From NCBI GenBank assembly GCA_017452665.1, contig JAFTLZ010000102.1, positions 1 to 52,246 of the forward strand: DNA of 52,246 bases, in the 5' to 3' direction. The notes below the pieces were generated by a model, which saw only the letters and a list, made by a program, of their open reading frames with translations, searched no databases and was not told where the DNA came from. Numbering within the stretch: position 1 is the first letter of the stretch; each line of letters starts with the position of its first letter. The stretch is from Clostridia bacterium. Its GTDB lineage: Bacteria > Bacillota > Clostridia > Oscillospirales > CAG-272. Shown here in pieces: positions 14,300 to 52,246 of the stretch. Made by a program: the position numbers and the translations under genes.

Positions 14300-14328
14300 T
14301 TGCAAAAAGGAAAAAAAGGTGCTATAAT
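14300..14328 (+). promoter_or_regulatory. Sigma-A promoter of the large lipoprotein gene
   Basis: TTGCAA (14300-14305), 17-nt spacer, TGCTATAAT (TATAAT at 14323-14328). Confidence 0.5.
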
Positions 14329-14386
14329 GATCCTGACAACTTATTCCCGCGTAACAAAATCACTTTGTGACGAAGAAAGGAAGAAT

Positions 14387-17300: not shown

Positions 17301-18130
17301 ACAAAGCGCTTCCGTTTGGAGACGCTTGCTCGAATTGCGAGTACGTGATCAACGGCGGTCAGTATTTTATTCTGTATTTCACACTTTCCGAAGCCGACAG
17401 ACAGCTGGTTGAAGTTGGAAATGATCCGGAACCGTATTGTACCACCAATACCAAAATGACGGTTGCCGATCTGATCAGCGAATGTAAGATCTCCATGGAT
17501 AATGCTGTTCTTGAAATCAACGGAACTTACATTTCTTCGGCAGACGATGCTACTTTGCTGTATCGGTTACTGCGTTCCTACGGCGCTCATGAGATCACCA
17601 TTCATATTCGCAAGGTTGATTTTGAGGTTGCCATCTACGATCTTTACGGCGAGAGCAGCTATTGCGGCTTTGATACGATTTTGACCTTCCCCATTTATGC
17701 AAGCGGGATCGATGTTGCTGCCCGCTTGGAAATTGATCCCAATTACTACACCTGGTTGCTTTACACGTACGACGAATCCACCGGCGAGAAGACGGTCGAG
17801 ATATTGCCGAGCCAAGTATTCGATTCTCACGGCGGAGATTGGGATAAGTACACCTCAACGGCAGAGTATTGTCTGATTTTGATGCCAAACGAATTCATGG
17901 TAACCACAGTGGTGTATGATCACGAGTATAACCAAATTTTCTACAATGAAACGGTTTTCTCACAGCCGGTTACCGTAGAGGATGTGATGGGAATGCACGG
18001 TTACAAATGGGATGATACGGTTGCATCCGTATTTACCAATCACGATATTCCCACGCTGGGCACATGGATTTCCAAGCGTTGCTTGTTGGAGATCTATCTG
18101 TACGAATCGGTTACAGAAGAAGTGATCTGA
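14387..18130 (+). CDS. Large secreted modular lipoprotein of unknown function
   Basis: Signal peptide with lipobox (LMIFSLCAC). About 180 aa of D/S/T/E/P-rich linker. Then about 12 small repeat domains punctuated by three Cys/His-rich motifs (CxHxW...CxxC...CP...CxxC). Confidence 0.85.
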   Translation: MMKLFNRCLLTALALLMIFSLCACDLLESLNGSSGTKDSSDDSTGSESDSDSTSGDLTPEPEEDSSTGDEIDSGIGGTENGSTENGTAGGTVTATPGGENSAPPIEDTVGSDKTDPVPTPDPEPGTETGSKQEETKVPNPDPKPDDDTTAEEHPGTDPGSDSSSNEDATTAVPDPEPSPNPGTDTETDSGKDTETTEPEPLPDPEPTTMEVIFSYANPMGESGKELVTVESTSMPLAELVDKYISKYMGGMDYATSLNYCKWYVDDTPATAATVIYNGQIVHCEVVSIPSGGGSDVEQTTMEVIFSYANPMGESGKELVTVDAVSMSLAELVDKYISKYMGGMDYATSLNYCKWYVDGTPATAATVIYNGQVVHCEVVSIPSGGGSDVEQETIEIYYTAKNSFAGINESGSVTVPAPSITLEALVNGYLSEFLGMDYTSSLNYCTWTVDGALADADTEITAGQTVYCEIIALPGGNVEVNPDPGSTTVSVNISSDTNELYSDVTMNEESVPLSQVVDQYVYVMLKYTYEESLKLGVWYINGDSANADDVVVPGDKVVFEVALSREDCVHSWSAGFCALCGYTCPHETFTNGVCDLCGSIMNQVEFPDGFAITITLESDAFGSAVVGYPMGTTVGEVLSMTWGVTVEDLIAKSFCVIIGDREITSSDETLYESCTIAVIFRESAEDQPSELVSYVIDYYGKTFDMSEPISLRDFVGNVLGQNYDDSVLNGYWMVDGGSVDESYIFGYSCYVTYEEYPAPVCEHSWQSGYCTLCNMPCPEDHNALGGLICPICNFSTNGGELNHFSVTVYMDGNYYTTLNYSLVFGDYVTLDTVLQGALYESGSILLEKYTVAVDGTETTNLLYEISYNAQVFLTAAPMMTTYNILYENNGGIYMITEPTTVRVFLDCYLSISYDEMVANGYFTVDGLHVDGEYMLMGNYTLAYVETIKLECEHNWDSYTGTCHHCGEACPEDHKALPFGDACSNCEYVINGGQYFILYFTLSEADRQLVEVGNDPEPYCTTNTKMTVADLISECKISMDNAVLEINGTYISSADDATLLYRLLRSYGAHEITIHIRKVDFEVAIYDLYGESSYCGFDTILTFPIYASGIDVAARLEIDPNYYTWLLYTYDESTGEKTVEILPSQVFDSHGGDWDKYTSTAEYCLILMPNEFMVTTVVYDHEYNQIFYNETVFSQPVTVEDVMGMHGYKWDDTVASVFTNHDIPTLGTWISKRCLLEIYLYESVTEEVI
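15005..15556 (+). repeat. Tandem duplication, 2 x 276 bp, in frame within the lipoprotein gene
   Basis: ACAACGATGGAAGTT starts both units (15005 and 15281). The encoded 92-aa units differ at 6 residues. Confidence 0.9.
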
Positions 18131-36216: not shown

Positions 36217-36255
36217 CCCGCCAACCACTTTCGCAGTTGGCGGGTTTTCTATTTT
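36217..36255 (+). terminator. asd terminator = island hairpin copy 1
   Basis: 9-bp GC-rich stem (36217-36225 / 36236-36244) followed by TTTTCTATTTT. Confidence 0.75.
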
Positions 36256-36294
36256 GCACAAAAACAGTGCGCTGATTTTGTTGTGTTTTGCATA

Positions 36295-36323
36295 TTGACA
36301 CCATTTTACCTGTATGGTATAAT
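36295..36323 (+). promoter_or_regulatory. Cassette 1 promoter
   Basis: TTGACA (36295-36300), 17-nt spacer, TGG-TATAAT (36318-36323). Confidence 0.75.
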
Positions 36324-36434
36324 AAAATTGCAGATGGCGCGCTGGTTATCCTCTCAATTTTTACTACTACTATTATTATTGGTGAAGTTGTTGTGATATC
36401 CGGTAGCGTTATTAAGTTGTTTGAATAGGAAGGA

Positions 36435-36626
36435 ATGGCTATGAGAAAAATATATTTATTTAATTGTATTGTTTTAGCTTTCAATATTATTCTTTCTATC
36501 ATATCAATTCTTCTTTGTAAGGCGAACGTGTTTCATTATATTGCTTTGGTTGCGTTAGTTATTGCGTTGATTTGTGTTATAGTCCAAATAAAGAAAGATA
36601 AAAAAAGCCAGCAAGGAGAATCCTAA
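36435..36626 (+). CDS. Small membrane protein (63 aa)
   Basis: Two hydrophobic helices and a basic tail. AGGAAGG RBS. Its stop overlaps the next start (TAATG). Confidence 0.65.
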   Translation: MAMRKIYLFNCIVLAFNIILSIISILLCKANVFHYIALVALVIALICVIVQIKKDKKSQQGES

Positions 36627-37249
36627 TGAAATATGTTGTATATATCATTTTGTTTTTCTGTGCCGGCTTTTTGTTTTTGCCTCGAACCGGAACCACAGAG
36701 ATCCGCAATCAACCTCTTCTAATACTGATTCTTTCACTCATTCTGATCTTGATTTTGATTCGTTTCTTCAAATACGTTGTCTTAATGGCAAAAACACAAA
36801 AATTACTCAAAAAGCATAGGACTAAGCTGATAAAAATCAAGTTTTTTCCATGGACTTCGCGCTTTCACGGTCATTACAGTATTACTTTTCAACACGAAAA
36901 GCAAACGGTTCAGCTCGTTCTTCTATCCCGAAAAAAGAAATACCAGCGGTACCATTTTGAACGTATAGATCGGTTGGAATTTTACCGGGCAAACCGAGTT
37001 GTTTTCAAGAGTACCCAAAAATTGGGAGGTATCATCTCCAACCTTGTAGAAATCAATCAGGTTGGCAAACAAAGGATAAAATGGGAAGATTCTGCAGAAC
37101 TCCGCATCGTTCTTTTTGATAAGCTACCGGATCTGATAACGGATTCCGTAAAAAAAGAACCCCTTGGCGTAGGCGATCGGATATGCGCATCCGATAGTTA
37201 TGTATTGGATTGGAGCTCGTTATCCAAACATATCCATGCAGATAAATAA
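36626..37249 (+). CDS. Hypothetical protein, N-terminal TM hairpin plus basic soluble domain
   Basis: 207 aa, AAGGAG RBS, translationally coupled to the preceding ORF. Confidence 0.75.
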   Translation: MKYVVYIILFFCAGFLFLPRTGTTEIRNQPLLILILSLILILILIRFFKYVVLMAKTQKLLKKHRTKLIKIKFFPWTSRFHGHYSITFQHEKQTVQLVLLSRKKKYQRYHFERIDRLEFYRANRVVFKSTQKLGGIISNLVEINQVGKQRIKWEDSAELRIVLFDKLPDLITDSVKKEPLGVGDRICASDSYVLDWSSLSKHIHADK

Positions 37250-37294
37250 CAATTTCTACTCAATAAAATCTAAATTTGAAAGGCGGTGTTTTAT

Positions 37295-37831
37295 ATGAAG
37301 AACGCAATGGTACTAATTCTGTTTTTGTCGTTGTGCTTGTTTGGCTCATGTGCTACAGGAGGATATAATTTGAGCAGTGAAGTATCTTCGCCTGATAAAA
37401 AACTAACGGATTTAGCATCTAAAACATATGATGATTCAACGCTGTTGGATATTGTAAATTTTGATGGCTCAAGCGATGAGTTGAACGTTTTATATCCGAT
37501 TGAATGTGTAAGAAAACTTGATGATATTTATCGAGTATCATATCTTGGCGAAGATAGTGTTGCGGTTCTTTTATTTGACAATTCAGGCAATAAATTGTCC
37601 GGAACAATCTACGACAATCAAAAGTCAAAATCAGACTTTGCTGAATTGGAAAAAGGACAGTCTCTACAAAAAGTAAGAGAGCTTGATCCAAACGGAGCAT
37701 ATATATTCCTTTACACCGGAAGTGTTGATACTCCCAAAATCTCTTCGCACTACACGAATGACGGTTATTTAATTACCATCGAATACGACGCTTCAAATAT
37801 AATCACAAGCATATGTGAAGAACTGATTTGA
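37295..37831 (+). CDS. Hypothetical lipoprotein
   Basis: Signal peptide MKNAMVLILFLSLCLFGSC with lipobox, 178 aa. Confidence 0.75.
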   Translation: MKNAMVLILFLSLCLFGSCATGGYNLSSEVSSPDKKLTDLASKTYDDSTLLDIVNFDGSSDELNVLYPIECVRKLDDIYRVSYLGEDSVAVLLFDNSGNKLSGTIYDNQKSKSDFAELEKGQSLQKVRELDPNGAYIFLYTGSVDTPKISSHYTNDGYLITIEYDASNIITSICEELI

Positions 37832-37853
37832 TTTATGAATCGGCATCAAATGT

Positions 37854-37885
37854 CTCCCGCCAACCACTTCCGTGGTTGGCGGGAG
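37854..37885. repeat. Island hairpin copy (14-bp stem, loop TTCC)
   Basis: CTCCCGCCAACCAC (37854-37867) pairs with GTGGTTGGCGGGAG (37872-37885). No T-run follows. Confidence 0.85.
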
Positions 37886-37925
37886 CAGACTGTAGACAAA
37901 ACAACCGGCTTTCGTCAGTTTGAAG

Positions 37926-38088
37926 AAAAGTTTTGGTCGAGCTTTTTCAAAAGCTCGCGCAGTGGAGGGCGCGGAGCCATCCTCGCCCTTCGCAGAGGGC
38001 GAAATAGCCTCTTTATGGCGCTTTTCTTTTTGCCAAGCTTTTTCTTTTGCGCCTTCTTGGTCAAAAGAAAAAGCGGCACTAACAAATT
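37926..38088 (+). ncRNA. Structured multi-hairpin repeat element, copy A (function unknown; ncRNA or MITE/REP-like)
   Basis: Hairpins at 37938-37957, 37984-38001 and 38037-38074 (12-bp stem). A homologous inverted copy lies at 47948-48097, with compensatory changes in two stems. Confidence 0.5.
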
Positions 38089-38122
38089 TGTGCAATATTA
38101 CAAATTGAATACCTTTGGTCTA

Positions 38123-38168
38123 CAACCAGCTCCCGCCAACCACAGAAGTGGTTGGCGGGAGCTGGTTG
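38123..38168. repeat. Island hairpin copy (perfect 21-bp stem, loop AGAA)
   Basis: CAACCAGCTCCCGCCAACCAC (38123-38143) pairs with GTGGTTGGCGGGAGCTGGTTG (38148-38168). Confidence 0.9.
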
Positions 38169-38226
38169 CATCGTATAAAGTAAAAAACGAATCGGTAAGA
38201 CCATAAATGAAGTCGTCACGGTGCTC

Positions 38227-38255
38227 TTGACAGTTTTTTTGAATTATGGTATAAT
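38227..38255 (+). promoter_or_regulatory. Cassette 2 promoter
   Basis: TTGACA (38227-38232), 17-nt spacer, TGG-TATAAT (38250-38255). Confidence 0.7.
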
Positions 38256-38313
38256 ACAGATGTATATGTGTCAATACCTACAGATCAGACAAACGGTTCG
38301 GGAGGTGATTTCT

Positions 38314-38892
38314 ATGCGAAAAACTTATGCAAATTTGCTTCGTGTTAAGGTTGCCAAAGGATTGCTTCGCGGCCTCGTTTGGTTTGCGGTAATTCAAATT
38401 GTAATTCTTGCTGTATATGCTTTGGAATCTCATTCAAATGCTCCCATCAGCATAACCGATTTAAAAAGTGCCACTATTACAGTTGATCAAATCGGAAAAG
38501 ATGTCCGTTTTGTTGGTGGATCTAGAATTTATGTTGTTTCCGATTCTGTAAAGTATACTTTTTCTAAGTCAGAGACACTCGACAACGGGCAATATACCAA
38601 AGATGAGTTGCAAAAAGCGATTTCCGTTGGTGATGAGTTGTCAATACGATATAAGGAAGAGGACAGCTTTTTTACGGGCAGTGTGAATTATATTTACGAT
38701 GCTACGATGGGTGATAAACAACTGCGTTCTATTGAAACACATAATCAAGAGTTGATCAATATGCATAGTTTGGCAACTGTTTGTTTTGTGGTTGTAGAAA
38801 TTATCTTTTCTCTAACCCTTATTGTTTGTGCTTGCCTTTATATCTCTTTTAACTGGAAGGGAATGAAGCTTTTTCAAAAGCGCAAGCACTAA
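38314..38892 (+). CDS. Hypothetical membrane protein (N- and C-terminal TM helices)
   Basis: 192 aa. GGGAGGTG RBS 7 nt before the ATG at 38314. Confidence 0.75.
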   Translation: MRKTYANLLRVKVAKGLLRGLVWFAVIQIVILAVYALESHSNAPISITDLKSATITVDQIGKDVRFVGGSRIYVVSDSVKYTFSKSETLDNGQYTKDELQKAISVGDELSIRYKEEDSFFTGSVNYIYDATMGDKQLRSIETHNQELINMHSLATVCFVVVEIIFSLTLIVCACLYISFNWKGMKLFQKRKH

Positions 38893-38898
38893 CCTCTT

Positions 38899-39017
38899 CC
38901 GCCAACCACTTTTGCAGTTGGCGGGTTTTCTGTTTTGCACAAAAACGGCGCGCTGATTTTGTTGTATTTTGCATATTGACGTCATTTTACATGTATGGTA
39001 TAATAAAATTACAAATG
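38899..39017 (+). repeat. Hairpin + promoter module, copy 2
   Basis: CCGCCAAC...GTTGGCGG, TTTTCTGTTTTGCACAAAAA..., TTGACG-N17-TGGTATAAT (38976-39004). Confidence 0.9.
38976..39004 (+). promoter_or_regulatory. Cassette 3 promoter
   Basis: TTGACG, 17-nt spacer, TGG-TATAAT. Confidence 0.7.
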
Positions 39018-39086
39018 ACACCATCGGTATTTGGTGCACAGATACGGTTACAATTTTAAAACAGATAGCCAAAGGAGGGATTAAGT

Positions 39087-39734
39087 ATGAAACGTATCAA
39101 ACCGATTTTATTCTGTATAGGAATTGTTCTGTTGGTGTGCTGTATTTTATGGATAGCTCTTCGCGCATATGGATGTTCTTTAACAACATATATTACTGAT
39201 CTTGAAAAGTATGCTGGAGAAGAATATGCTTTTTGTATAGTATTTCCGAGAAAAATACCGGAAACTGCAGTTGAAAAAAACTTTTCTTATCATCAATATA
39301 TCGACGAAAGAGATATCTATCTGGAATTGGTTTTTCAAAATGTTGCAGATATGGAGCAATATCTTGCGGATTTAAAAGCGAACGGCGATGGTATTGCCTC
39401 AATAACTTTGCAAAATCCTTATGACACAGACTATACTGATTTGCTTTTTGCAGAAGGAGGTACATTGACGCAAAATGGTTCCGTTTTTTATGAGTACGAG
39501 ATTGAGCAGATAGAAAACTATTCTTTAAAGATTAGCGGAAGTTATTCTGCCATTAGTTATTCTTATGAAACTTTAACGGTGATTTCTGCTCATTTTGATG
39601 GTCAGAGATTTGTAAAGGAGTTTTCTTCGGAAAGAGTTCCTGCATATTTGAAAAGATTTTCTGTCGATCTGAATACACCTATTGAATATCGGGTTGATTT
39701 CCCCACGGAAAATTCTGATTTGACGACAGAATGA
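39087..39734 (+). CDS. Hypothetical membrane-anchored protein
   Basis: 215 aa with an N-terminal TM anchor. AAAGGAGG RBS. Confidence 0.8.
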   Translation: MKRIKPILFCIGIVLLVCCILWIALRAYGCSLTTYITDLEKYAGEEYAFCIVFPRKIPETAVEKNFSYHQYIDERDIYLELVFQNVADMEQYLADLKANGDGIASITLQNPYDTDYTDLLFAEGGTLTQNGSVFYEYEIEQIENYSLKISGSYSAISYSYETLTVISAHFDGQRFVKEFSSERVPAYLKRFSVDLNTPIEYRVDFPTENSDLTTE

Positions 39735-39798
39735 ATAAGCGAATCGGTTAATATGATCGCAGTTGAGCAGGGTACAGCATATATATGGAGGCAATAAA

Positions 39799-40221
39799 AT
39801 GAAATACAAAAAGAGTATTCTGGTTCTCTATCTCATTTCCGCTTTGAAGCTGATTATGACATTTATCTATTTTTTCGGTTTCACATCTGATTTTTATTAT
39901 TTAACAATTATCTCTATTCCCATGTGTATAGCGAATATGTTTAACGAAAAAATAGCATTGCTTTGTGTCGTAATTTTAGCGGTTACTTTGTTGATATGGC
40001 TTGTTGCGGTTGTACTTTCGATATTTGGAATTAAATTTCAAAGGGCTCGAATCGGTTCTGTATTTATGTTTGCTTTGGCTACAGTAATTGATTTTGGATC
40101 TGTATTTTTATCTGATAATTGGGTTCTAAAAATCGTTTGTAGCATAATATCAGCATTTGTACTGCTGATATCAATCAAAGCACTTTGCGATATTAACAAA
40201 AATTGTAGATATCCAAAATAA
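39799..40221 (+). CDS. Hypothetical polytopic membrane protein
   Basis: 140 aa with about 4 TM helices. GGAGG RBS 7 nt before the ATG at 39799. Confidence 0.75.
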   Translation: MKYKKSILVLYLISALKLIMTFIYFFGFTSDFYYLTIISIPMCIANMFNEKIALLCVVILAVTLLIWLVAVVLSIFGIKFQRARIGSVFMFALATVIDFGSVFLSDNWVLKIVCSIISAFVLLISIKALCDINKNCRYPK

Positions 40222-40256
40222 TCCTTTATAATAGTCAGATTTTAGAGGCTTTATCC

Positions 40257-40370
40257 CCCGCCAACCGCGAAAACGGTTGGCGGGCTTTCTGTTTTGCACA
40301 AAAGAGCCATATATATTTTGTCTTATTTTATATATTGACACTCTTTCTGTTGTATGATATAATAAAACAT
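40257..40370 (+). repeat. Hairpin + promoter module, copy 3 (diverged)
   Basis: CCCGCCAACCG-N6-CGGTTGGCGGG, CTTTCTGTTTTGCACAAAA..., TTGACA-N17-TGATATAAT (40335-40363). Confidence 0.85.
40335..40363 (+). promoter_or_regulatory. Cassette 4 promoter
   Basis: TTGACA (40335-40340), 17-nt spacer, TGA-TATAAT (40358-40363). Confidence 0.7.
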
Positions 40371-40422
40371 ATAGGAGCCCCGTTCTTGCCATTCGATTTT
40401 ATGATAAGCGGCAAAAGGAGTG

Positions 40423-40827
40423 ATGACTTTGTTTGAATTTAACCGATCTCAAATCGAAGGTTTAAAGCGTTATATTTATCATAGCGATATTCACGATTCG
40501 AAAATTGATGCTTGGAATTATGATAGAGAGAAAAGAATTCTTAATATCAAAACGGTTAATCCGATTTTTGGTACTCAAATGAACCTAACTTTTAAGGAAG
40601 TTATCATTTTTCTCTCCATTAGCGGCAATGAAATCGGAGCCCGCGAAACAATCCTCAGTTTAACAGTTGAAGAAGATTATTCGTATTTCCAAAATTGCAC
40701 ACAAGTATGCGGCGAATGTTTCGGTGATTCTTTGTATCTTCTTTTTCAAATGTTTTCCGGAGACGAATTGCATATTGTTTCTAAAAGCGTAGTTATCTTT
40801 ACGACACAACTTATTCCACGCGCGTGA
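40423..40827 (+). CDS. Hypothetical small soluble protein
   Basis: About 134 aa. AAAGGAG RBS. The start is ambiguous (GTG 40420, ATG 40423 or TTG 40429). Confidence 0.7.
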   Translation: MTLFEFNRSQIEGLKRYIYHSDIHDSKIDAWNYDREKRILNIKTVNPIFGTQMNLTFKEVIIFLSISGNEIGARETILSLTVEEDYSYFQNCTQVCGECFGDSLYLLFQMFSGDELHIVSKSVVIFTTQLIPRA

Positions 40828-41507
40828 TGGAAGAAAAACACCAAAATTGTTCCGGTACGTTTTTCAACGAAGCGATTTGGGATATCAATGACTATTTATC
40901 AAAAAGCACTGTCATGTTGGGGGATAATATCAAAATGCTGAATCAATTTTTTACACGAATCGAGCGCAAAATGCTCCTCTCAAGGCTAAAAGCATTGCTG
41001 GCATGGCTGTTTCTCATCGGTGCTTATGTTTTCTTTTTTCTGTACGATTGGCGAAGGGGAATTTTTTTCCTGTTCCTTCTTCCAATGCTTGTGGCAATTT
41101 ATAGGACTGATAATTGGTATTTTCCGGCGGAAGATTATTTTCGGAAGTATGCATTCAAGCATTCCAAAGAAGAACGGTGGAATTTATCCGAAAAATGTTC
41201 ATTGAAAGGGAGATATCTATATATCGGGCAAGCGATTTTTTTGGAGGATTTTGTTTTGTTAGAGGAATTCGGCGTTGTTTTGTATTATAGCGAAATCCGC
41301 GAAATCACCTACAAAACCATGAAAACCAGATTAAACGATACCCGATATCGGTTGATCTTCCGTTTAAAAAAAGCACCTCGAAAATACGCTTGTGATATCT
41401 ATAACAGTGAAAAACTTTTTGTAGGTCGTGATTGTAAATATCGACAAGCATGCGAATTGTTGAGGCAAAAAAATAAAAATCAAACTCCTAATGAAAGGCA
41501 AATATGA
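40827..41507 (+). CDS. Hypothetical protein, TM hairpin plus soluble domain
   Basis: 226 aa. The start overlaps the upstream stop (GTGATG). Confidence 0.75.
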   Translation: MEEKHQNCSGTFFNEAIWDINDYLSKSTVMLGDNIKMLNQFFTRIERKMLLSRLKALLAWLFLIGAYVFFFLYDWRRGIFFLFLLPMLVAIYRTDNWYFPAEDYFRKYAFKHSKEERWNLSEKCSLKGRYLYIGQAIFLEDFVLLEEFGVVLYYSEIREITYKTMKTRLNDTRYRLIFRLKKAPRKYACDIYNSEKLFVGRDCKYRQACELLRQKNKNQTPNERQI

Positions 41508-41878
41508 TGGATTTATTAGTTTGTTTGAACGAGCATGTCATTACAACTGTTGGCCGGTCGGATGAGGATAAATGTGTGATTATAGAAGCCATCGTTGACA
41601 ATCCGGAAGAGCTTGTAGAGCAGGTCATAAAAAATGATTGTTATATTTCTCAAATTATTTGGTGGGATAGAGCGTTGCGCTCAAAAGGATCATCTATAGG
41701 TATGGGAGGCCCTCTTGATCCGCGAGATCCTGACAATTATTATTTTGCAGAATTGTATATTTGTGATACATTTGGCCCGGAAACAACGGCTGATGAATAT
41801 GTTGAATATCTGAATAGGATAAAAAAGAAATATCCTATGTGTGATTTGTATCCGGATTTTAATATTTATAGAAAATAA
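41504..41878 (+). CDS. Hypothetical small acidic soluble protein
   Basis: 124 aa. The start overlaps the upstream stop (ATGATG). Confidence 0.75.
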   Translation: MMDLLVCLNEHVITTVGRSDEDKCVIIEAIVDNPEELVEQVIKNDCYISQIIWWDRALRSKGSSIGMGGPLDPRDPDNYYFAELYICDTFGPETTADEYVEYLNRIKKKYPMCDLYPDFNIYRK

Positions 41879-41934
41879 TCATGCGATTTGCCCAAGGCAA
41901 AAAATCCTCCCCAAAATGCTGAAAGGAGCGAAAG

Positions 41935-42402
41935 ATGAGCAACATGATCCATGGAACCGTTTATTACACGACAAGGCCCCCGCTTGGTGATTTTGATAGT
42001 GATTGGACACGATACTGTCTGGATAACGAATTTGCAATTCATTTTTTAAGCTTACATCATAATATATCAACGGGTAAGGGGACTATTGTATTCGAGTTGG
42101 CCGATTCCTTTGTGGCACACTGTTGTGAGAATTTTATGGATATTGTCCTCTATACGGTTGATGGACACCCCATATTAGATCCAATCCATAAAGATTTGGG
42201 CAAATTAAAGGGCTTGGTTCAAAAAATATTCGATTTCAAATCTGTGGAAATGGTTGAATTGAGGTTTTCGTTTGGCGAAGTCATAGAGGAAGACTATGAA
42301 ATTTGTAAGACGAATCTTGATGGAATGACGAACGTTATTTTATCAAAATACTTGGAGGAAGCCACACAAGTTCCTACCATAAAAGTAATGATCGAAAAAT
42401 AA
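41935..42402 (+). CDS. Hypothetical soluble protein
   Basis: 155 aa, GAAAGGAG RBS. Confidence 0.75.
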   Translation: MSNMIHGTVYYTTRPPLGDFDSDWTRYCLDNEFAIHFLSLHHNISTGKGTIVFELADSFVAHCCENFMDIVLYTVDGHPILDPIHKDLGKLKGLVQKIFDFKSVEMVELRFSFGEVIEEDYEICKTNLDGMTNVILSKYLEEATQVPTIKVMIEK

Positions 42403-42426
42403 AGAACCGCTTGGAGGTGTGACCAC

Positions 42427-42906
42427 TTGGATATCTGGCTCATAGAAAAATGGCAAGATTATTATAAAGATCATCCTTGCCGAAGCGGCTTGCGAGTATA
42501 TTATGATAAAAATGTGGATCCTGAAGTAAAGCGCGCCATTAAGGAGTGCGTTGCATGGCTTCGTCGCGAATATGTTTTTCCTAAAAGAGTACGAATGTAT
42601 GTAAAATCCAATCGACGCATCAAAGCAAAAAACGGCGATATGGTGTGCGGTACTTTTTTCAGACCCACTGATAGAGATGTGGAACCGTATATTCGAATTG
42701 CCACAGGAGACTATTTGGAACTTTTCGAACAAAGGGGAAAGGACAATGCTTTAGCAGCTATCTTGCAAGCAATGATGCATGAACTCTCCCATTATTTTCA
42801 GTGGTTGAACGATTTGGATTTAACCTTCATCGGTGAAGAACGTCAGGCAACAAACTATTCGCGTCGGTTGATGAGTCTCTATGCAGAAACCAGAGATCAT
42901 CCGTAA
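42427..42906 (+). CDS. Hypothetical protein with HExxH motif
   Basis: 159 aa. TTG start 7 nt after GGAGGTG. MMHELSHYFQW is a possible zincin-like metal site. Confidence 0.7.
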   Translation: MDIWLIEKWQDYYKDHPCRSGLRVYYDKNVDPEVKRAIKECVAWLRREYVFPKRVRMYVKSNRRIKAKNGDMVCGTFFRPTDRDVEPYIRIATGDYLELFEQRGKDNALAAILQAMMHELSHYFQWLNDLDLTFIGEERQATNYSRRLMSLYAETRDHP

Positions 42907-42968
42907 ATTTTTGCTTTCACTATTGCAGGTATATCCATTTGTTTTCATTTTTTGAGGAGGAGTCATTC

Positions 42969-43208
42969 ATGGATAAAATTAAATTTTACAAAATACTAAA
43001 AGAAAACGGCATAGATACGAACAAAGTTTGTTTTGATGATGCTTTTGAAGATGATGTTTTTTGTGTTTACTCCTACCATGGTTTTTGGGATGTTTTTTAT
43101 CGAGAACGCGGAAAAACTTATAATCTAAAAACTTTTTCAAGTGAGTCTGCGGCACTACTCGATTTATTAAAACGATTGTTACCGACCATTCCCCCAAACT
43201 CCCCCTAA
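42969..43208 (+). CDS. Hypothetical small protein (79 aa)
   Basis: GAGGAGGAG RBS 6 nt before the ATG at 42969. Confidence 0.7.
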   Translation: MDKIKFYKILKENGIDTNKVCFDDAFEDDVFCVYSYHGFWDVFYRERGKTYNLKTFSSESAALLDLLKRLLPTIPPNSP

Positions 43209-43244
43209 TAAAACTGTCCGTACTTTAATGATTGGAGAATCGCA

Positions 43245-43538
43245 ATGTATATAAATGTTCTATATGAAGGTGATTATTGTGATTGTGATATTATATTTGT
43301 TCCTGATTCTATTGGAGATAAGATTGAACAATATGCGCAACAATTTTGTGATTGGCTAAATACTCCTTACGTTTCGAATGATTATTATGTGACCATAAAT
43401 GGCAAGGAATACCTGAGTTTAGAAACCGACGGATTTGTTCGTTGGCTCAATCATTATATTTGCAAAGATCAATGCTTGGCGCATATAGTAAAACAGCACA
43501 CAAATTTAGTTCCTTCGTACAAGGTGATAGAATTTTAA
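43245..43538 (+). CDS. Hypothetical small protein (97 aa)
   Basis: GGAG RBS. Cys- and Tyr-rich soluble protein. Confidence 0.7.
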   Translation: MYINVLYEGDYCDCDIIFVPDSIGDKIEQYAQQFCDWLNTPYVSNDYYVTINGKEYLSLETDGFVRWLNHYICKDQCLAHIVKQHTNLVPSYKVIEF

Positions 43539-43581
43539 GGGTTGTTTTCTTTCTATCCTAATCCGAAAAGGAGTAACCATT

Positions 43582-44310
43582 ATGAAAACTATTCAAAGAT
43601 GTGTTTGTGTATTGATAATTCTATCCGCGATGTTTCTTTCGTCTTCTTGCAAAAATTATTATTCGGGCGATGAGTATCATATGCTTGGTTCATACATTCC
43701 GGGATTTCCAACAACAGATGTGAGAGATTCAATACATGAAGTCCTTGAAACTGACGAATACGGAAGAGTGTTATTTTCTTTCTCCTTCAGTTATAACTGT
43801 CTGTACGGTAAAGAAATGTTGGCATATGCTGTTTTGCAGGATTTAGATGGTGATTTCATTTATTTTTATGAAGATGTGTTTTATACCGTTTCTAAAACTC
43901 CCGATCTTGAATTGTTGAAACAAATAAATGATTGGGGTGAAGAATTAAATCAATCACAGCTTGCAAAACGTCCGATTCGCGGTTATTTTCACTATAATAT
44001 CAAAAAAACATTGCTTGAATTTGATCGCCGATCCGATCGGAAAAGAATTGTTCAAGAAATAGAGCAAGCGCTTCCTTCCAAAGGCGTTCACTTAACTGAC
44101 ATATGCCAGATCTGTGATTATGATTTATCCGAGTTGCAACTGGAGCTATGCGGGATTGAAGAGGAAGATGGGGAAATCGTATATTATTTCATTCTTATAA
44201 ATTCAAGCGGCGTTGTAGATTTTATGAGAATCGAAGATATTTATGATTATCAAGAAGATCTGATTGCCTTCAAGACGAAAAACGGTTGGAATTATCCTAC
44301 CGGAAACTGA
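43582..44310 (+). CDS. Hypothetical lipoprotein
   Basis: Signal peptide with lipobox (MFLSSSC), 242 aa, AAAGGAG RBS. Confidence 0.8.
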   Translation: MKTIQRCVCVLIILSAMFLSSSCKNYYSGDEYHMLGSYIPGFPTTDVRDSIHEVLETDEYGRVLFSFSFSYNCLYGKEMLAYAVLQDLDGDFIYFYEDVFYTVSKTPDLELLKQINDWGEELNQSQLAKRPIRGYFHYNIKKTLLEFDRRSDRKRIVQEIEQALPSKGVHLTDICQICDYDLSELQLELCGIEEEDGEIVYYFILINSSGVVDFMRIEDIYDYQEDLIAFKTKNGWNYPTGN

Positions 44311-44342
44311 AAAATTGTATAGGAGGTTATGCAATAAACAGT

Positions 44343-44759
44343 ATGAGTTTTGTTGAATATATTTTGGTATATACTCTCTGGCTTCTCCTGATGGTGTTTA
44401 TTACACGTGGCATCATTTTCTATGTAATTAGCTATCAACTGAGTAGAAAAGCATATGTCAAACGAAAGCGAAAACAGTCTTTTCTTCAATGGTTGACGTA
44501 TGCTCTTTTTAAAGAACAAATTCCTAAGTTTTTGATTTTTTGGTATTTTGGTCATTTTGCGTTTTATATTGTTGAAATCTTGCTTCTTAGTATTTTAACA
44601 TTTTTTAAAATGCCATATGATGCTGCAAAAATCTTGTTGGGAATCAATTTCTATGTATACGGTGGCGCCCCGTGTTTGATACTGGGTTTTATTCTTTTTG
44701 ATTTTAAAGATCGGGGAAAGGTTCATGTGGAAAGGCTGATTAAAAAGAAGAAAAAATGA
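44343..44759 (+). CDS. Hypothetical polytopic membrane protein
   Basis: 138 aa with about 4 TM helices and a KKKKK tail. The start is uncertain (TTG 44286 or ATG 44343). Confidence 0.7.
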   Translation: MSFVEYILVYTLWLLLMVFITRGIIFYVISYQLSRKAYVKRKRKQSFLQWLTYALFKEQIPKFLIFWYFGHFAFYIVEILLLSILTFFKMPYDAAKILLGINFYVYGGAPCLILGFILFDFKDRGKVHVERLIKKKKK

Positions 44760-44775
44760 TTATAAATCAATTTTC

Positions 44776-44812
44776 CCCGCCAACTGCGAAAGTGGTTGGC
44801 GGGTTTCTAATT
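44776..44812 (+). terminator. Terminal island hairpin (loop inverted relative to copy 1)
   Basis: CCCGCCAAC (44776-44784), TGCGAAAGTG, GTTGGCGGG (44795-44803), followed by TTTCTAATTTT. The loop is the exact reverse complement of the copy 1 loop CACTTTCGCA. Confidence 0.75.
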
Positions 44813-44842
44813 TTCAGTCAAAATTTTGCACAAACCGCATTT

Positions 44843-47850: not shown

Positions 47851-47947
47851 GGTTTCAAAAAGACAGGGAGCCTTTCAGATTACTACATAGAATACTGATA
47901 AATTTTATTTCAAAAGCAACAGTTTATTAAATTAACAAAATCTGCTA

Positions 47948-48097
47948 GCCGCTTTTTCTTTTGACGATGTAGGCGCAAAAGAAAAAGCTTGGTAAAAAGA
48001 AAAACGCCGTAAAGGAATTTCGCGCTCTGCGGAGCGCGACAAGGGCGCCGTGCCCTTGACCTCGCCGCCTTTTGAAAAAAGGCGGGCGAAAACTTTT
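47948..48097 (-). ncRNA. Structured multi-hairpin repeat element, copy B (inverted relative to copy A)
   Basis: The reverse complement aligns with 37926-38088. It has the same 12-bp stem GCTTTTTCTTTT/AAAAGAAAAAGC (47951-47988). The other stems are changed in a compensatory way. Confidence 0.5.
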
Positions 48098-48176
48098 ACT
48101 GTTTTTGAAAGTACTAACTCCTTTGTTAGTGAGCTGAGCGGGGAGCCTTTCAGCTCCCCACAAAAATTGTTTGTGC

Positions 48177-48572
48177 TTAAATCAACCCGTAGCGATCCGT
48201 AATGTGCGTCGCCGTAGCGGGCAGCTCCACCTGAATGGAAGCCAGCGCGTCGGAGTAGAGCGAAAAATATTTGTCGCTCATGCGCTCGTTTTCATCTATC
48301 ACCAGCATCGCGGCAAGATAATAGACCGCTGCCGGCGCAAAGATCCCGCAAAGCGGAAATGCTTCACCCAGGTCAATCGCAGCGCCTTCAAACGCTTCCA
48401 CAGCATCCAATCCGTGTGCCAATCTGTATCTCGCATCCAGCGGCGCACATTGCGTCAAACAGGAGGCAAGCAGATAGGGCGCACGCTCGGTATAGTCTTC
48501 CAAATTCTGCGGCAGTGATGGATCCTCACAAACCAAACGCACCGCCGCATCCAAAAGCTCCTGACAGGTCAT
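48177..48572 (-). CDS. Phage protein of unknown function (position suggests head completion/connector)
   Basis: 131 aa, GGAGG RBS, immediately downstream of the capsid gene. Confidence 0.6.
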   Translation of the reverse strand: MTCQELLDAAVRLVCEDPSLPQNLEDYTERAPYLLASCLTQCAPLDARYRLAHGLDAVEAFEGAAIDLGEAFPLCGIFAPAAVYYLAAMLVIDENERMSDKYFSLYSDALASIQVELPATATHITDRYGLI

Positions 48573-48586
48573 TTGTTACCTCCGCA

Positions 48587-49426
48587 TCAAACCGCGTCCG
48601 CGATGTTCAGATCCAAAAGTACCATTTCGGAGGGGTAAACCACCTTCGCACCGTAAAGATGCAAGCCCTTTACCGCATCTGCAAAGCGCAGCTCGGGACG
48701 ATATGCGTCAATCTCGGAGAGCTGCTCCGCAAATGCGATGGCGCGCTTGGTGCGTGCCAGGCACTTGTGCTTGTAGCCGGTGTCGCTTTCGGCTTTGACG
48801 ATGTTGTTGGAAACGTAAATTTTGCAACCGCCGATCGAGCCGATGCAACCGTTTTCCAGCGCGTCACCGTTGTCGCTTGCCAAATTGACCTTCGCCTTCA
48901 GAATCATGCCGGCAATGTCGGGAGAAACCTCGATCACAATGTCCTGCGGATCGGAAACGTTGTTGGTAAAGAGTTTGGTACGCGCATCGATCAGCAGATC
49001 AATAATGTTGTCCACCGTCGTATCCTCGGCAGAAATTTTCACTCCTGCATCGTTGTAAAGATTGTAGATGTAACGGTCTGCGTCGTTTGCCAACGCATTT
49101 GCGGCGTTGCGCATCGCAGCCTCCATCAGCTTCGGGGAAGCCTGCGCACGGTCGATATCGTCGATCTGGAAGTTAAAGTACTTCGCCTGATCAATTACCA
49201 AATCGCGCACGTTGTCGGAGAGGCTGGAGGGAGAACTCATATTGGAATTTTTTGTGTACTCCGAAACGGTCACGGCATTGATGCCGCAAATGCGTACAGT
49301 GTTGCCTTTCTCGCGGATCTCGCCCTCAAAATCGCGGTTGCAGTTGGATACCGCAATGTACTGCTTGTTCAGCTCCTGATACAGATTTTCGCTCCATACA
49401 GTGGGAATAAAGTTTGTAATAGCCAT
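48587..49426 (-). CDS. Phage major capsid protein (P22-coat-like family)
   Basis: The N-terminus MAITNFIPTVWSENLYQEL...NRDFEGEI..KGNTVRI matches my memory of P22 coat-like capsid proteins. It follows the scaffold gene. Confidence 0.75.
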   Translation of the reverse strand: MAITNFIPTVWSENLYQELNKQYIAVSNCNRDFEGEIREKGNTVRICGINAVTVSEYTKNSNMSSPSSLSDNVRDLVIDQAKYFNFQIDDIDRAQASPKLMEAAMRNAANALANDADRYIYNLYNDAGVKISAEDTTVDNIIDLLIDARTKLFTNNVSDPQDIVIEVSPDIAGMILKAKVNLASDNGDALENGCIGSIGGCKIYVSNNIVKAESDTGYKHKCLARTKRAIAFAEQLSEIDAYRPELRFADAVKGLHLYGAKVVYPSEMVLLDLNIADAV

Positions 49427-49483
49427 AATTTTTATCCTTTCTTTTTTAAAAAATATAAAATAATTCTTGTTCTTATTCTAAAA

Positions 49484-50074
49484 TCAGCGCCATTTTTGCA
49501 TAGATCGCATGATTTTTGGCAGATTTGCCCGTACTTCGGTCGCGGACATTGCGCGTACCTCGTCAGGCGAAAATTCTTCGGCTTCCTGTGCTTTCAGTGC
49601 ACCTGCCGAGCGGTTTCGGTTTTCTTCGTTCCGTTGCATTGCCATCTCCTGTGCACAAACCCTGCGCCGTTCCGCCAATGCATAAGCGGCAGCAAGAGAG
49701 GTGCCGCGGGTCTGTACCTCTTCCCAAATGGATGCGGGAAGTGTCGCCACGGGAATCTCGGGATACAGCTTGTAAAACTCCTCGTATTCGCTTTCAATGC
49801 GGCTGAGCACCGCACTTTGCCCCGCAAGCTTTTCCTGCAGGCGCGCTATTTCGGTTCGCAGGTCGGCAAGCTCGTCCTCGTCAGCTTTTGAAACAGCGGG
49901 CTCAGAATCAGGATTAGGATCTGCACCGGAATTTTCAAAAATTGCATCGCCGACAGTCTCTTCCATTGCAGCATCTGCCGATCCTGCTCCTGTCTCTGCG
50001 CTTTGAGAATCCGCACAGCTCCGCGTTGCATCCTCCGAATCCGAATTTTCGATAACAGTTTGATTTTCATTCAT
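49484..50074 (-). CDS. Phage scaffolding protein
   Basis: 196 aa with an acidic, low-complexity N-terminus and a helical coiled-coil region. It lies between the portal and capsid genes. AAAGGAG RBS. Confidence 0.7.
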   Translation of the reverse strand: MNENQTVIENSDSEDATRSCADSQSAETGAGSADAAMEETVGDAIFENSGADPNPDSEPAVSKADEDELADLRTEIARLQEKLAGQSAVLSRIESEYEEFYKLYPEIPVATLPASIWEEVQTRGTSLAAAYALAERRRVCAQEMAMQRNEENRNRSAGALKAQEAEEFSPDEVRAMSATEVRANLPKIMRSMQKWR

Positions 50075-51533
50075 TTTCTGACGCTCCTTTCACAAAAATT
50101 TTTTGGATCATTGCATCCCGGTCGATCAATACCCCGTCGGGTAGCAGCTCCAGATATTGGCGGACATCCAAATGCCCCTTGTCCAACAGCTTGTCCAGCA
50201 CCGTTACGGTTGCCGACGGCGTGTAGCTGCTGAGGCCGTTTACCTGTGCAGTTGCCCGCAAAAGCTCCTTTTTCATCAGCGCAAAATCGGTCTCCTGCGC
50301 GCTCTGCGTGCCGTCTGCATCCAGCGTCACAAGTAGACGCTCGGCAGGGTAGTAGGTGCAAATCATATCCGCCCAAATATCGGCAAGCTCACCGATACAG
50401 CGTTGAAAATTCGCACGCACGTGTGCCAGAGCCAGCTGTGAGGCTTCCTGCAAAGCAAGAATGGCACTTGTGTTGTTCGCTTCCGCGTCGCCAAGAGCTG
50501 CGTCGGTCGCGTTCATCATGCTCTTGGTGTTTTCAATGATGTGCGTGATCAGGTCCAGGTATCCGTCCTGCATCTTGCCCACACCCACCACCGATACCGC
50601 ATCCGCCACGTTTCCGCCGCCCATCGCAGCAATCGCCTCGCCCACCTCATTCGACCAATCCGGGATACGGGATTTGTCATAAACGACCTTGGAGAACGCC
50701 GTGTCGCTCATGTGCTTCATAGCCAATGCATACGCAGAATTGATATACTTTTGGTTTGCAATCATATCGCTGATGGGCGCGCTGCCGTGAAAGCTGTTTT
50801 TGCAATCGTGCCAATGAAAGTAGGCAACAGGGTAGTGGTGCAAGCCCGTGTGTACGCGGCGGATCAGGCAGTAGCGCGTGGACTTTTCAAATACCACCTC
50901 GCCGTTTTCACGGAAAAAGCGGATCAGATAGGTCGTTTTCTCCGCGTTGTTCAGTTCGCATTTTGCAAGATCTCCCGCTTGTAGCTCGGCTTCGCCATCT
51001 CCCGTAATGCGCAAGACGTCGCGCTCGCTTACCCCCGCCTCCAAGGCCTCATGGCGCAGAGATGATACGGTCGCGCGTCCGGAGAGCAGAACGTATTCCT
51101 GTGATTGCAGATCCGAGCAGTTGACGTCCGAAACAAACAGATTGGTACTGTCAATGCGATCGGTGCGGATGTCACCCGTGTAGAGCTGACCATCCGTGTG
51201 GTCGGGATCCCACCAGCAGTAAAATACACCGTCTCCCGAGATTGCCGCATCTAACAGAGCACCGTAGGAGAGTACCTCCATCCGACCCTGTTGCCAACGC
51301 CACAGCGCATTCTTGTTCAAAACCTCGATCCCCTGTAAAATCCGTTCCCGCGCGTCAGGCTCGCGGATAAAGGGGAGCGCGTCGTCCGAGTAGCGGACCG
51401 TAAGATTTTCCGACATCACGCCGGCTACCAGATAATCGGTAATTCTTCGTACCAGGTTAAAAACGGGGCGGGGCAGATCGGTACAAATCCCGTGCCACTG
51501 ATCGCCGCGGTAAAATCTCTCGTTGCGCCGCAC
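50067..51533 (-). CDS. Phage portal protein (true start probably further upstream, near 51620)
   Basis: Portal-typical N-terminal NERFYRGDQW motif, about 490 aa, gene order. The frame stays open upstream to an AAAGGAGG at 51622-51629 (see finding). Confidence 0.8.
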   Translation of the reverse strand: MRRNERFYRGDQWHGICTDLPRPVFNLVRRITDYLVAGVMSENLTVRYSDDALPFIREPDARERILQGIEVLNKNALWRWQQGRMEVLSYGALLDAAISGDGVFYCWWDPDHTDGQLYTGDIRTDRIDSTNLFVSDVNCSDLQSQEYVLLSGRATVSSLRHEALEAGVSERDVLRITGDGEAELQAGDLAKCELNNAEKTTYLIRFFRENGEVVFEKSTRYCLIRRVHTGLHHYPVAYFHWHDCKNSFHGSAPISDMIANQKYINSAYALAMKHMSDTAFSKVVYDKSRIPDWSNEVGEAIAAMGGGNVADAVSVVGVGKMQDGYLDLITHIIENTKSMMNATDAALGDAEANNTSAILALQEASQLALAHVRANFQRCIGELADIWADMICTYYPAERLLVTLDADGTQSAQETDFALMKKELLRATAQVNGLSSYTPSATVTVLDKLLDKGHLDVRQYLELLPDGVLIDRDAMIQKIFVKGASENE

Positions 51534-51632
51534 CGTCTCGTAAAGTCCGATTCGACGCTTGTACTCTTTTCCCGCCTCGTATTCCTGCCATGCTTGAGTA
51601 GTTGGTTGAGAAATAACAATTCCTCCTTTCGT

Positions 51633-52246
51633 TTAAAAATTTGAATAGATTGACAGCCGATAAAGGCTGGTTTTTGCCACGCCCGTAACCGAGATCGAAA
51701 ACCGCAAAAATCGGTGTCTGCCGGTCAGCGCACGGAAATCAAAATACTCGGGAGCCACAGCGTCCGTATGGCCGATCAGGTTTCGGGTCAGTGTACGATT
51801 CTCGGTCTCAGCGCACAGCGTTGCCTCATTCGCGCCGATGCTCGCCACCAGCGAAAGACGCAACGACCGCCGCACAAGCTCGGGGGAGCCAAAGTCGAAA
51901 TATCCGCTTCGATAGTACGCCGTAATTGCATTGCCGTCATCCGCGGCAAGCGTGTCGTCAAAAACGTAAACCGTACTACCGCCAAAAAAGCAGACCCCGT
52001 AGCCCGTGGTCGAAAACAGATCCGCACCGATGCCGTCAAAGCGGAGCCACTCCTCACGGGATAGACTGTATACCCACACCGTACCGCTGTCATCCAACCG
52101 ATCTCTGACCCACAGCTCCTCGCGAGCCGCGTCCCAGAACACGGTGGTACGTCTTGCAAATCCTGATGGTAAGAGCGCCGAGATCGGCTCGGAGATCTTT
52201 TCGCAGCTAATGTTTTCAGGATGTGACGCACTTGCTTTGAGCCAAA
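51633..52246 (-). CDS. Phage-associated protein, 5' end outside window
   Basis: The frame is open from 52142 to the window edge with no stop. The C-terminal part is beta-rich and is not terminase-like by eye. Confidence 0.6.
   Translation of the reverse strand, partial: WLKASASHPENISCEKISEPISALLPSGFARRTTVFWDAAREELWVRDRLDDSGTVWVYSLSREEWLRFDGIGADLFSTTGYGVCFFGGSTVYVFDDTLAADDGNAITAYYRSGYFDFGSPELVRRSLRLSLVASIGANEATLCAETENRTLTRNLIGHTDAVAPEYFDFRALTGRHRFLRFSISVTGVAKTSLYRLSIYSNF

Follow-up and report, generated by a model that had tools for sequence, protein, structure and literature searches.

What is a block of some 130 nt, with a hairpin at one end and a promoter-like sequence at the other, doing in several copies in front of unrelated genes on a bacterial chromosome? 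The question is raised by the window, by which is meant the whole 52,246-nt stretch of DNA analyzed here (contig JAFTLZ010000102.1, assembly GCA_017452665.1), an NCBI metagenome-assembled genome (MAG) contig from an uncultured Clostridia bacterium with IJW92_ locus tags. Between the asd gene and a convergent gene of the AraC family the window carries an island of low guanine-plus-cytosine (GC) content, in which the block occurs as three full copies (modules 1 to 3), a stand-alone promoter (promoter 4), and a truncated terminal copy (Table 1). The block is probably a composite regulatory cassette in which terminator, operator-like element, and promoter are joined much as in the promoter-early stem-loops (PeSLs) of T4-type phages, and which would insulate and drive acquired genes.

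The repeated module and its counterparts in phages

A repeat search with positions 36218-36349 as reference recovers 38899-39030 at 88% identity and 40258-40389 at 64% identity, each about 130 nt long. The original prediction, made from the sequence alone, had described three co-linear modules at these places, the first two close to one another and the third more diverged, and both the repeat search and a three-way alignment bear this out. The three full modules have in common the order of a GC-rich hairpin, a T-run, ATTTTGCACAAAA, an AT-rich spacer, and TTGACA/G-17-TGnTATAAT. Hairpin, operator-like element, and promoter are identically spaced in all three, and the spacer from ATTTTGCACAAAA to the -35 element is 31 nt long and rich in T-tracts in every copy. 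Invariant in the alignment are the hairpin stem, TTTCTnTTTTGCACAAAA, ATTTTGT, TTGAC, and TGnTATAATAAAA, with divergence confined to the spacers between them. Conservation that follows the elements in this way (stem, T-run, ATTTTGCACAAAA, -35, and -10 kept, spacers diverged) points to selection on function.

The predicted promoters are close to the consensus. In a consensus scan the four best sites of the region are the promoters of the three modules and promoter 4, with scores of 12/12 for modules 1 and 3 and for promoter 4 and 11/12 for module 2, and all four have a 17-nt spacer and the TG of an extended -10 element. Of the five occurrences of TTGACR-N14-TGNTATAAT in the window, four fall in the island, and the pattern is found in none of 100 shuffles of the window and in none of 2000 shuffles of the island region. 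The consensus promoters of the original prediction, including the fourth, thus withstand comparison with shuffled sequence. Its description of the last hairpin is also confirmed: this hairpin keeps the left part of the module (TTTCTAATTTT...TTTTGCACAAA) and has no promoter. Promoter 4 precedes the gene for a 192-aa membrane protein (38314-38892), which it is predicted to drive. Elsewhere in the window a fifth such promoter (TTGACA-17-TGtTATAAT, 7689-7717), with neither hairpin nor ATTTTGCACAAAA motif, precedes a 329-aa open reading frame (ORF) that has no family match, within a stretch of 41-46% GC (1-9 kb).

Six hairpins, beginning at 36217, 37856, 38132, 38898, 40257, and 44776 (H1 to H6), have the outer stem CCCGCCAAC/GTTGGCGGG in common. 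The octamer CCGCCAAC is observed 17 times against 1.9 expected, and 12 of these occurrences are arms of the six hairpins. H4 departs from the otherwise invariant outer 9-bp stem in having T for C as its first base. Variation is found in the inner stem and the loop, and H5 has one A-T to G-C compensatory pair. H1 and H6, which bound the island, are exact reverse complements over all 28 nt, so that the inner 10 nt are flipped between them. All six fold stably, with energies from -14.7 to -46.1 kcal/mol (H1 -16.7, H2 -30.1, H3 -46.1, H4 -14.7, H5 -23.0, and H6 -22.9) and z scores from -3.3 to -11.2. H1, H4, H5, and H6 look like intrinsic terminators, with predicted stems of 9-12 bp at the 3' ends of genes and a T-run behind each. 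H2 and H3 are not read as terminators because the T-run is absent; they form the outer ends of the 48-nt inverted repeats of an insert resembling a miniature inverted-repeat transposable element (MITE).

Searches with parts of the module had contrasting reach. The exact-module pattern GTTGGCGGGYTTTCTNTTTTGCACAAA has no match in 185k GTDB representative genomes, and module 1 has no blastn match among annotated phages and plasmids. The hairpin-only pattern CCGCCAAC-N8-12-GTTGGCGG is too generic, giving single matches from many contigs of metagenome and viral collections, and a T-run or operator is present in none of the loci among the matches listed; the more specific pattern of hairpin plus T-run has no match in IMG/VR. 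A known structured RNA finds no support, since Rfam gives nothing at the gathering threshold in the window and only noise-level matches at E<=1 in the island.

The part of the module that lies between hairpin and promoter does have counterparts in uncultured phages. A scan of viral collections for TTTTGCACAAAA, TTGAC, and TATAAT separated by gaps yields two contigs with nearly the spacing of the window, and ATTTTGCACAAAA-N7-12-ATTTTGT is found in 34 IMG/VR stretches, which represent 31 distinct sites. The gap is 11 nt, as in the window, in 22 of the 31; a -35-like hexamer follows just downstream in 13, and five are preceded by GCCCGGGCG. Because 12 sites extend to the full ATTTTGTGCA, the arms of which are reverse complements, the complete motif is taken to be an inverted repeat, ATTTTGCACAAAA-N11-ATTTTGTGCAA. 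By reading of the sequences, a terminator hairpin stands 5' of the GCCCGGGCG palindrome in at least the loci L329, L342, and L370. Many of the phage sites are placed between divergent promoters, and as many as 15 extended -10 promoters can be present within 7 kb of a phage locus. In L329, a low-GC phage contig of 82.8 kb, a unit comprising hairpin, GCCCGGGCG, ATTTTGCACAAAA, AT-rich spacer, and TTGACA-17-TGATATAAT is repeated between small genes. The modules of the window align without gaps with those of L329, L346, and L370 over one stretch that begins with the motif, takes in ATTTTGT and the -35, and ends at the -10; the L356 row of this alignment, which has wrong coordinates, is disregarded.

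At the level of sequence, the motif grammar is common to the modules of the window and the phage promoters. The left part of the module is accordingly best described, we conclude, as a putative operator-like element upstream of the promoter, of a kind common to phage early-type promoters, and not as a recombination core peculiar to the island. The ATTTTGCACAAAA inverted repeat, which has no match in the literature searched, is a candidate regulator-binding site, and by analogy a trans-acting protein may bind it. No candidate for such a binder emerged beside the phage copies, because the genes that flank them are diverse, with only a few ribbon-helix-helix-like proteins. The motif-bearing IMG/VR loci are L329 and L340-L372 (e.g., L329:9907, L346:2989, L370, and L357:2508), and several of the contigs are 130-185 kb long.

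A mechanism can be proposed from these parts. The GC-rich stem-loop and its T-run would be an intrinsic terminator ending the upstream unit. The operator-like ATTTTGCACAAAA, with ATTTTGT 11 nt further on, would lie about 45-80 nt upstream of the predicted start. A near-perfect extended -10 promoter of the sigma-A type, assisted by its AT-rich upstream region, would give strong and constitutive drive to the next unit, to which the ATTTTGCACAAAA site may add control by a trans-acting factor. Three full copies, the bare promoter, and the truncated copy would in this manner divide the island into four autonomous, insulated, and strongly expressed units. By analogy only, the repeats of about 50-130 nt may also serve as homology patches for the addition or exchange of cassettes, and recombination between modules may have built the island. 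The terminal copy, with hairpin and motif and no promoter, is compatible with the remnant expected from a crossover inside a module; an att-like duplication would fit as well.

The island, its cargo and its surroundings

The island begins with H1, 19 nt past the stop codon of asd, and ends 9 nt short of the stop codon of the convergent AraC-family gene, both neighbors being assigned with Pfam. Its GC content is 34-40%, compared with 50-56% in the flanks, and all 15 of its ORFs (63-242 aa) are on the plus strand. Judged by its composition, which is clearly foreign, the island is horizontally acquired DNA. Independently assembled metagenome contigs, seven from four samples, span every island junction at 99.5-100% identity, so the structure is no assembly artefact. 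Gene order in the seven contigs is identical to that of the window, the modules are invariant, and flanks and island are equally diverged.

Table 1. Positions of the island, its modules, and its gene cassettes in the window
Feature	Coordinates	Strand	Details
Low-GC island	36217..44834	+	From hairpin H1 to the truncated terminal module; 8.6 kb
Module 1	36217..36336	+	H1 36217-36244; T-run TTTTCTATTTT 36245-36255; ATTTTGCACAAAA 36251-36263; ATTTTGT 36275-36281
Module 1 promoter			-35 TTGACA 36295-36300; TGg 36315-36317; -10 TATAAT 36318-36323; predicted start near 36330
Module 2	38898..39017	+	H4 38898-38925; GTTTTGCACAAAA 38932-38944; -35 TTGACG 38976-38981; -10 TATAAT 38999-39004
Module 3	40257..40370	+	H5 40257-40284; GTTTTGCACAAAA 40291-40303; -35 TTGACA 40335-40340; -10 TATAAT 40358-40363
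Stand-alone promoter 4	38227..38255	+	TTGACA-17-TGgTATAAT; hairpin/operator left part absent
Truncated terminal module	44776..44834	+	H6 44776-44803; TTTCTAATTTT; 13-nt extra segment; TTTTGCACAAA 44824-44834; no promoter
Cassette 1 genes	36435..37831	+	63-aa membrane peptide 36435-36626; 207 aa 36626-37249; 178-aa lipoprotein 37295-37831
Cassette 2 genes	39087..40221	+	215 aa 39087-39734; 140-aa membrane protein 39799-40221
Cassette 3	40429..44759	+	Nine-gene operon: 132, 226, 124, 155, 159, 79, 97, 242 (lipoprotein), and 138 aa
MITE-like insert	37854..38161		308 bp; 48-nt terminal inverted repeats 37854-37901 and 38114-38161, enclosing 212 nt

The island proteins have no match to Pfam, NCBIfam, or PHROG at curated thresholds; below threshold the 159-aa protein weakly resembles DUF6639, and there is a weak match to a PHROG of unknown function. 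Several have N-termini of the membrane-protein or lipoprotein type. There is no similarity among them, and because they are not paralogues of each other the module precedes unrelated genes, as the original prediction had held for a terminator-like hairpin and promoter that are reused, here within a foreign island. Tandem gene duplication is ruled out on the same grounds.

Two genes from different cassettes have informative relatives. For the 132-aa protein encoded first in cassette 3 there are more than 226 homologues. On longer contigs their genes either follow an RHS/YD-shell gene (products of 2122 and 2146 aa) at a distance of 15 nt or stand within arrays of orphan RHS C-terminal fragments, beside AHH and PT-HINT domains. 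Homologues of the 178-aa lipoprotein of cassette 1 number more than 189; they belong to small-gene arrays behind giant RHS proteins, where Ntox44 toxin tips and Imm-NTF2-2 immunity proteins are their neighbors. Such positions are occupied by immunity genes in polymorphic toxin systems (PMC3482391; PMC3150448), and the placing of two genes from different cassettes there suggests an orphan immunity island without toxins. By the genomic context of its homologues, then, the cargo looks like orphan polymorphic-toxin immunity genes. The 215-aa protein, with a single distant homologue, comes close to being an ORFan.

The junctions that recur in the RHS arrays consist of RHS core-coding sequence. Consensus promoters are absent from these arrays (best score 10/12), no hairpin/promoter junctions are found there at the homologous genes, and the homologues are directly preceded by sequences that may be read as toxin-tip remnants. 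Since the homologues in RHS arrays lack such junctions, the terminator-promoter modules are distinctive of the organization of the island. A large serine recombinase of 538 aa (Resolvase, Recombinase, Zn_ribbon_recom, and DUF4368 domains) is encoded inside RHS toxin/immunity arrays of related Clostridia (L335-L339, e.g., L336:3175-4791; L375; and L377, 1497-3113). It adjoins homologues of the 132-aa and 178-aa genes, and it may mobilize blocks of immunity genes.

The stretch that follows asd appears to be a hotspot of variable DNA. The closest asd relatives of the window are ruminant-gut MAGs. In relatives with asd 78-94% identical, the region after the gene is not syntenic with the window and is variable, with other, species-specific hairpin repeats and small genes. 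The closest of them (asd 93-94% identical) have another repeated hairpin, of the GGGGAGAACCTTTTTGCAAAAAGGTTCTCCCC type, together with small variable genes. The loci in question are L009:11075-12241, L013:9175-9260, and L014:4445-4700, and L014 also has a TTGACA-17-TGGTACAAT promoter in this region.

The MITE-like insert has further peculiarities. H2 and H3 occupy 37856-37883 and 38132-38159, and a perfect 46-nt palindrome (-46 kcal/mol) lies at 38123-38168. A core of 67 nt (38011-38077) recurs inverted at 47948-48014 with 91% identity, in a second MITE-like copy (47945-48163) that has another terminal hairpin, GGGGAGC-CTTTCA-GCTCCCC. Both copies yield spurious ORFs with similar "proteins", and short-read assemblies break within the element (L001 ends at 38046 and L002 begins at 37937).

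Beyond the island, asd and an RlmL-like methyltransferase gene lie upstream, and the rest of the window comprises housekeeping genes, ORFs without a family match, and, to the right of about 48.2 kb, prophage structural genes. These last (about 48170-52246, minus strand; Phage_capsid_4 and P22_portal, with the terminase past the window) follow directly after the second MITE-like copy and have a host-like GC content, unlike that of the island. At 15005-15556 a 276-nt unit is present as two tandem copies, 95% identical, within an ORF of 1276 aa (14300-18130) that has no Pfam match and probably encodes a repeat-containing surface protein.

Known systems and rival explanations

The closest functional parallel is provided by the PeSLs of T4-type phages, in which a strong sigma-70 promoter, with AT-rich DNA upstream of it, is combined with a terminator stem-loop (Arbiol et al., 2010, PMC2839356). 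Autonomous, insulated expression has been shown for them experimentally; they also lie beside ORFans, and by recombination with one another they insert, delete, or circularize cassettes (PMC2839356; Comeau et al., 2014, PMC4122927). The likeness of the modules is detailed. A composite of about 100 nt, made up of a promoter, AT-rich DNA upstream of it, and a GC-rich stem-loop read as a terminator, is repeated between unrelated ORFans in a plastic region; each cassette would bring its own expression and insulation, and the repeats can act as homology for insertion and deletion. The modules likewise have a predicted consensus sigma-70-like promoter and an adjacent stable stem-loop, a predicted terminator. 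They differ in lying in a Clostridia chromosome between asd and an AraC gene and not in a T4-like phage of Gram-negative hosts, in their other stem sequence, in the extra operator-like ATTTTGCACAAAA, and in a cargo of the immunity type. Recombination products and indel polymorphism are also lacking among the seven contigs.

In its content the island resembles the rAID-1 arrays of Bacteroidales, which are recombinase-associated and have repetitive intergenic motifs (Ross et al., 2019, 10.1101/471110; PMC12247911). Both have a gut bacterium as host and repetitive intergenic motifs, and in both toxins are absent beside genes predicted to be orphan immunity genes, a prediction that for the island comes from two of its 15 genes. 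The 15 plus-strand ORFs at 34-40% GC fall within the rAID-1 definition of at least two co-oriented short genes with a GC content below 41%, and conserved intergenic motifs are present at five junctions, not between genes within operons. However, a XerD-family tyrosine recombinase such as heads rAID-1 arrays was not found next to the island or elsewhere among the window ORFs scanned or annotated; the host belongs to the Clostridia, and the toxin link is to RHS and not to type VI secretion effectors. The repeats, moreover, have the explicit form of terminator-promoter units and are present only at four or five junctions, not between most genes. In short, the unit would function as a PeSL does and the island resembles a rAID array, and it is a member of neither, because there is no T4-type phage, no rAID tyrosine recombinase, and a Clostridia host.

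Integrons offer a third comparison. Their attC sites are 57-141 nt long, with the arrangement R''(RYYYAAC)...R'(GTTRRRY), imperfect pairing, and extrahelical bases; the cassettes are usually promoterless, and clusters of attC sites without an integrase are known as CALINs. A co-oriented array, a hairpin-forming repeat at cassette boundaries, and, as in CALINs, no integrase nearby are points of likeness. The island hairpin differs in being 28 nt long with a symmetric outer stem, without extrahelical bases or the R''/L''/L'/R' layout. Its ends CGCCAAC/GTTGGCG each miss the attC consensus at two positions, each unit has its own promoter, and no IntI was found. On hairpin length, consensus mismatch, and the lack of IntI among the window ORFs scanned or annotated, the integron reading is rejected. 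Consensus sequences of dif are AT-rich and unrelated to the island hairpin; a chromosomal dif/Xer site, suggested by the 11+6+11 layout, is for that reason improbable.

Orphan toxin-immunity arrays are also known downstream of rhs and cdi genes (Poole et al., 2011, PMC3150448; Zhang et al., 2012, PMC3482391). Two gene families of the island are members of such arrays in related Clostridia, but the island has no RHS remnants, and its junctions are non-coding terminator-promoter modules. Putative mobile promoters are reused genome-wide before non-homologous genes (Nijveen et al., 2012, PMC3575422). With these, and with phage morons, the island has in common highly similar promoter regions before non-homologous genes and single genes with their own promoter and terminator; it differs in that its unit is a fixed composite of terminator, operator, and promoter, clustered in one island. 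The claim that duplicating such a module in front of unrelated genes is unusual was therefore overstated, given the PeSLs of T4-type phages (PMC2839356; PMC4122927), promoter reuse (PMC3575422), and the rAID motifs (10.1101/471110). Nor is the repeated block a new kind of element, since similar blocks occur in phage early regions.

What the sequence establishes is the anatomy of the module, its repetition, its occurrence beyond chance, and the unrelatedness of its cargo. Several observations weigh against a PeSL-like regulatory cassette. Promoter and terminator activity are predicted from consensus and folding only. The right arm of the motif is degenerate in the window, ATTTTGTTGTG or ATTTTGTCTTA instead of ATTTTGTGCAA, and none of the phage loci compared encodes a relative of the island proteins. 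The element is chromosomal and not in a phage hyperplastic region. The invariant outer stem, which a pure terminator role does not need, is also kept in the non-terminators H2 and H3, and immunity context comes from two of the 15 island genes, the other 13 being uninformative. Presence or absence of cassettes does not vary among the seven contigs, and searches with the asd, AraC, and ADH proteins recovered the same arrangement only and no empty site; the AraC-family product has no record elsewhere. Mobility of the modules can thus only be inferred, there being no polymorphism that could reveal cassette movement. The modules may travel with mobile cassettes or be their junctions, a reading that fits the data; no recombinase was found among the window ORFs scanned or annotated, gene order is the same in all public copies of the island, and no empty site was recovered.

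Among the rivals, a local history survives best, although it too appears unlikely. It supposes that a native terminator and promoter from behind asd, possibly the promoter of hpf (ribosome hibernation factor), were duplicated in situ, the copies being held alike by gene conversion while illegitimate insertion brought in foreign genes, and that the repeats have no part in mobility. The gene hpf follows asd in several relatives, with promoters that have the core TGGTATAATAAAAYTGCA in common (L034, and also L056, L074, and L031), and has been lost from this position in the window, where no hpf is present. Positions 36310-36330 of module 1 are identical at 21 of 21 nt (GTATGGTATAATAAAATTGCA) to the hpf promoter directly after asd at L034:11200-11220. 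Variability of the region after asd in relatives and the commonness of promoter reuse before unrelated genes (PMC3575422) also speak for such a history. The likeness to hpf promoters is confined to the -10 region and transcript start, however, and in relatives TGnTATAATAAAA is found in front of a range of genes, nine times per 1.23 Mb. An origin of module 1 from the hpf promoter is thus a lead only, the common string being a fairly frequent form of strong promoter. Moreover, hpf promoters have neither the hairpin nor the ATTTTGCACAAAA site, the upstream grammar of the modules matches phage promoters instead, and the modules are embedded in low-GC foreign DNA.

Less likely still is a site-specific array of the integron or rAID type, in which the 28-nt hairpin would be the recombination site of an enzyme whose gene lies in another part of the genome and cassettes would have been inserted stepwise after asd. 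In its detailed form, which we hold to be just as doubtful, hairpin plus TTTCTnTTTTGCACAAA at both island ends would be a duplicated attachment core and the promoter a cassette-borne arm. Retention of the outer 9-bp stem in six hairpins, even with module 3 only 64% identical overall, would be expected of a recombination site, and the hairpin with about 20 nt is indeed present at both island ends, the right copy being promoterless, like attR. Loop orientation varies among copies, as in the H1/H6 pair, rAID orphan-immunity arrays have repetitive intergenic motifs and low GC, and large serine recombinases lie within related RHS/immunity arrays. However, neither a scan of the window's larger ORFs nor the annotated genes of overlapping loci revealed a recombinase domain, and the symmetric hairpin without bulges has neither the attC consensus nor its length. 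The repeat runs about 90 nt past the hairpin and matches the phage promoter grammar there, which a recombination core does not need. The uniform cassette content of the contigs compared and the absence of the exact hairpin plus T-run from IMG/VR, and of the module from GTDB representatives, also count against a site-specific array.

Finally, it is improbable that a selfish hairpin of the repetitive extragenic palindromic (REP) or MITE type spread independently, for instance along with the MITE-like element whose ends it forms, its association with promoters being secondary: H2 and H3 do end an element with inverted repeats and lack T-runs, the outer stem is identical in all contexts, and related MAGs carry other species-specific hairpin repeats after asd, but all six copies in the 52-kb window lie within the 8.6-kb island and none in the other ~43 kb, four of the six have a T-run exactly at the 3' ends of genes, another hairpin closes the second copy of the MITE-like core, and hairpin, operator, and promoter keep their spacing in three copies.

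Implications for gut Clostridia

If the modules are indeed PeSL-like regulatory cassettes and their cargo orphan immunity genes, a gut Firmicute stockpiles genes for defence against the toxins of its neighbors, detached from the toxin loci, and furnishes them with standard, self-contained expression units that are otherwise seen in phage early regions. The PeSL idea of an expression unit that is also a recombination handle would thereby extend from T4-like phages to a bacterial chromosome, and rAID-like orphan immunity arrays from Bacteroidales to Clostridia.

A bolder proposal, to which we give little credence at present, is that gut Clostridia have a recombinase-independent, PeSL-like chromosomal cassette system, a Firmicutes counterpart of rAID, in which toxin-less immunity genes have been uncoupled from RHS loci and placed under phage-derived modules. 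The inverted repeat ATTTTGCACAAAA-N11-TTTTGTGCAA would then be bound by a widespread host or phage regulator, wiring the island to a phage early-gene circuit, and the modules would be portable homology for exchange between phage and chromosome.

To our knowledge the promoter biology of these organisms is at present almost nonexistent. With their predicted activity, the modules would be ready strong promoter and terminator parts for genetic tools in gut Clostridia. The ATTTTGCACAAAA inverted repeat, whose distance from consensus promoters is constant across dozens of contigs of uncultured phages, is a testable candidate for a regulator site. This candidate regulator-binding inverted repeat and the evidence for toxin-less immunity islands in gut Clostridia may be the most useful by-products of the analysis.

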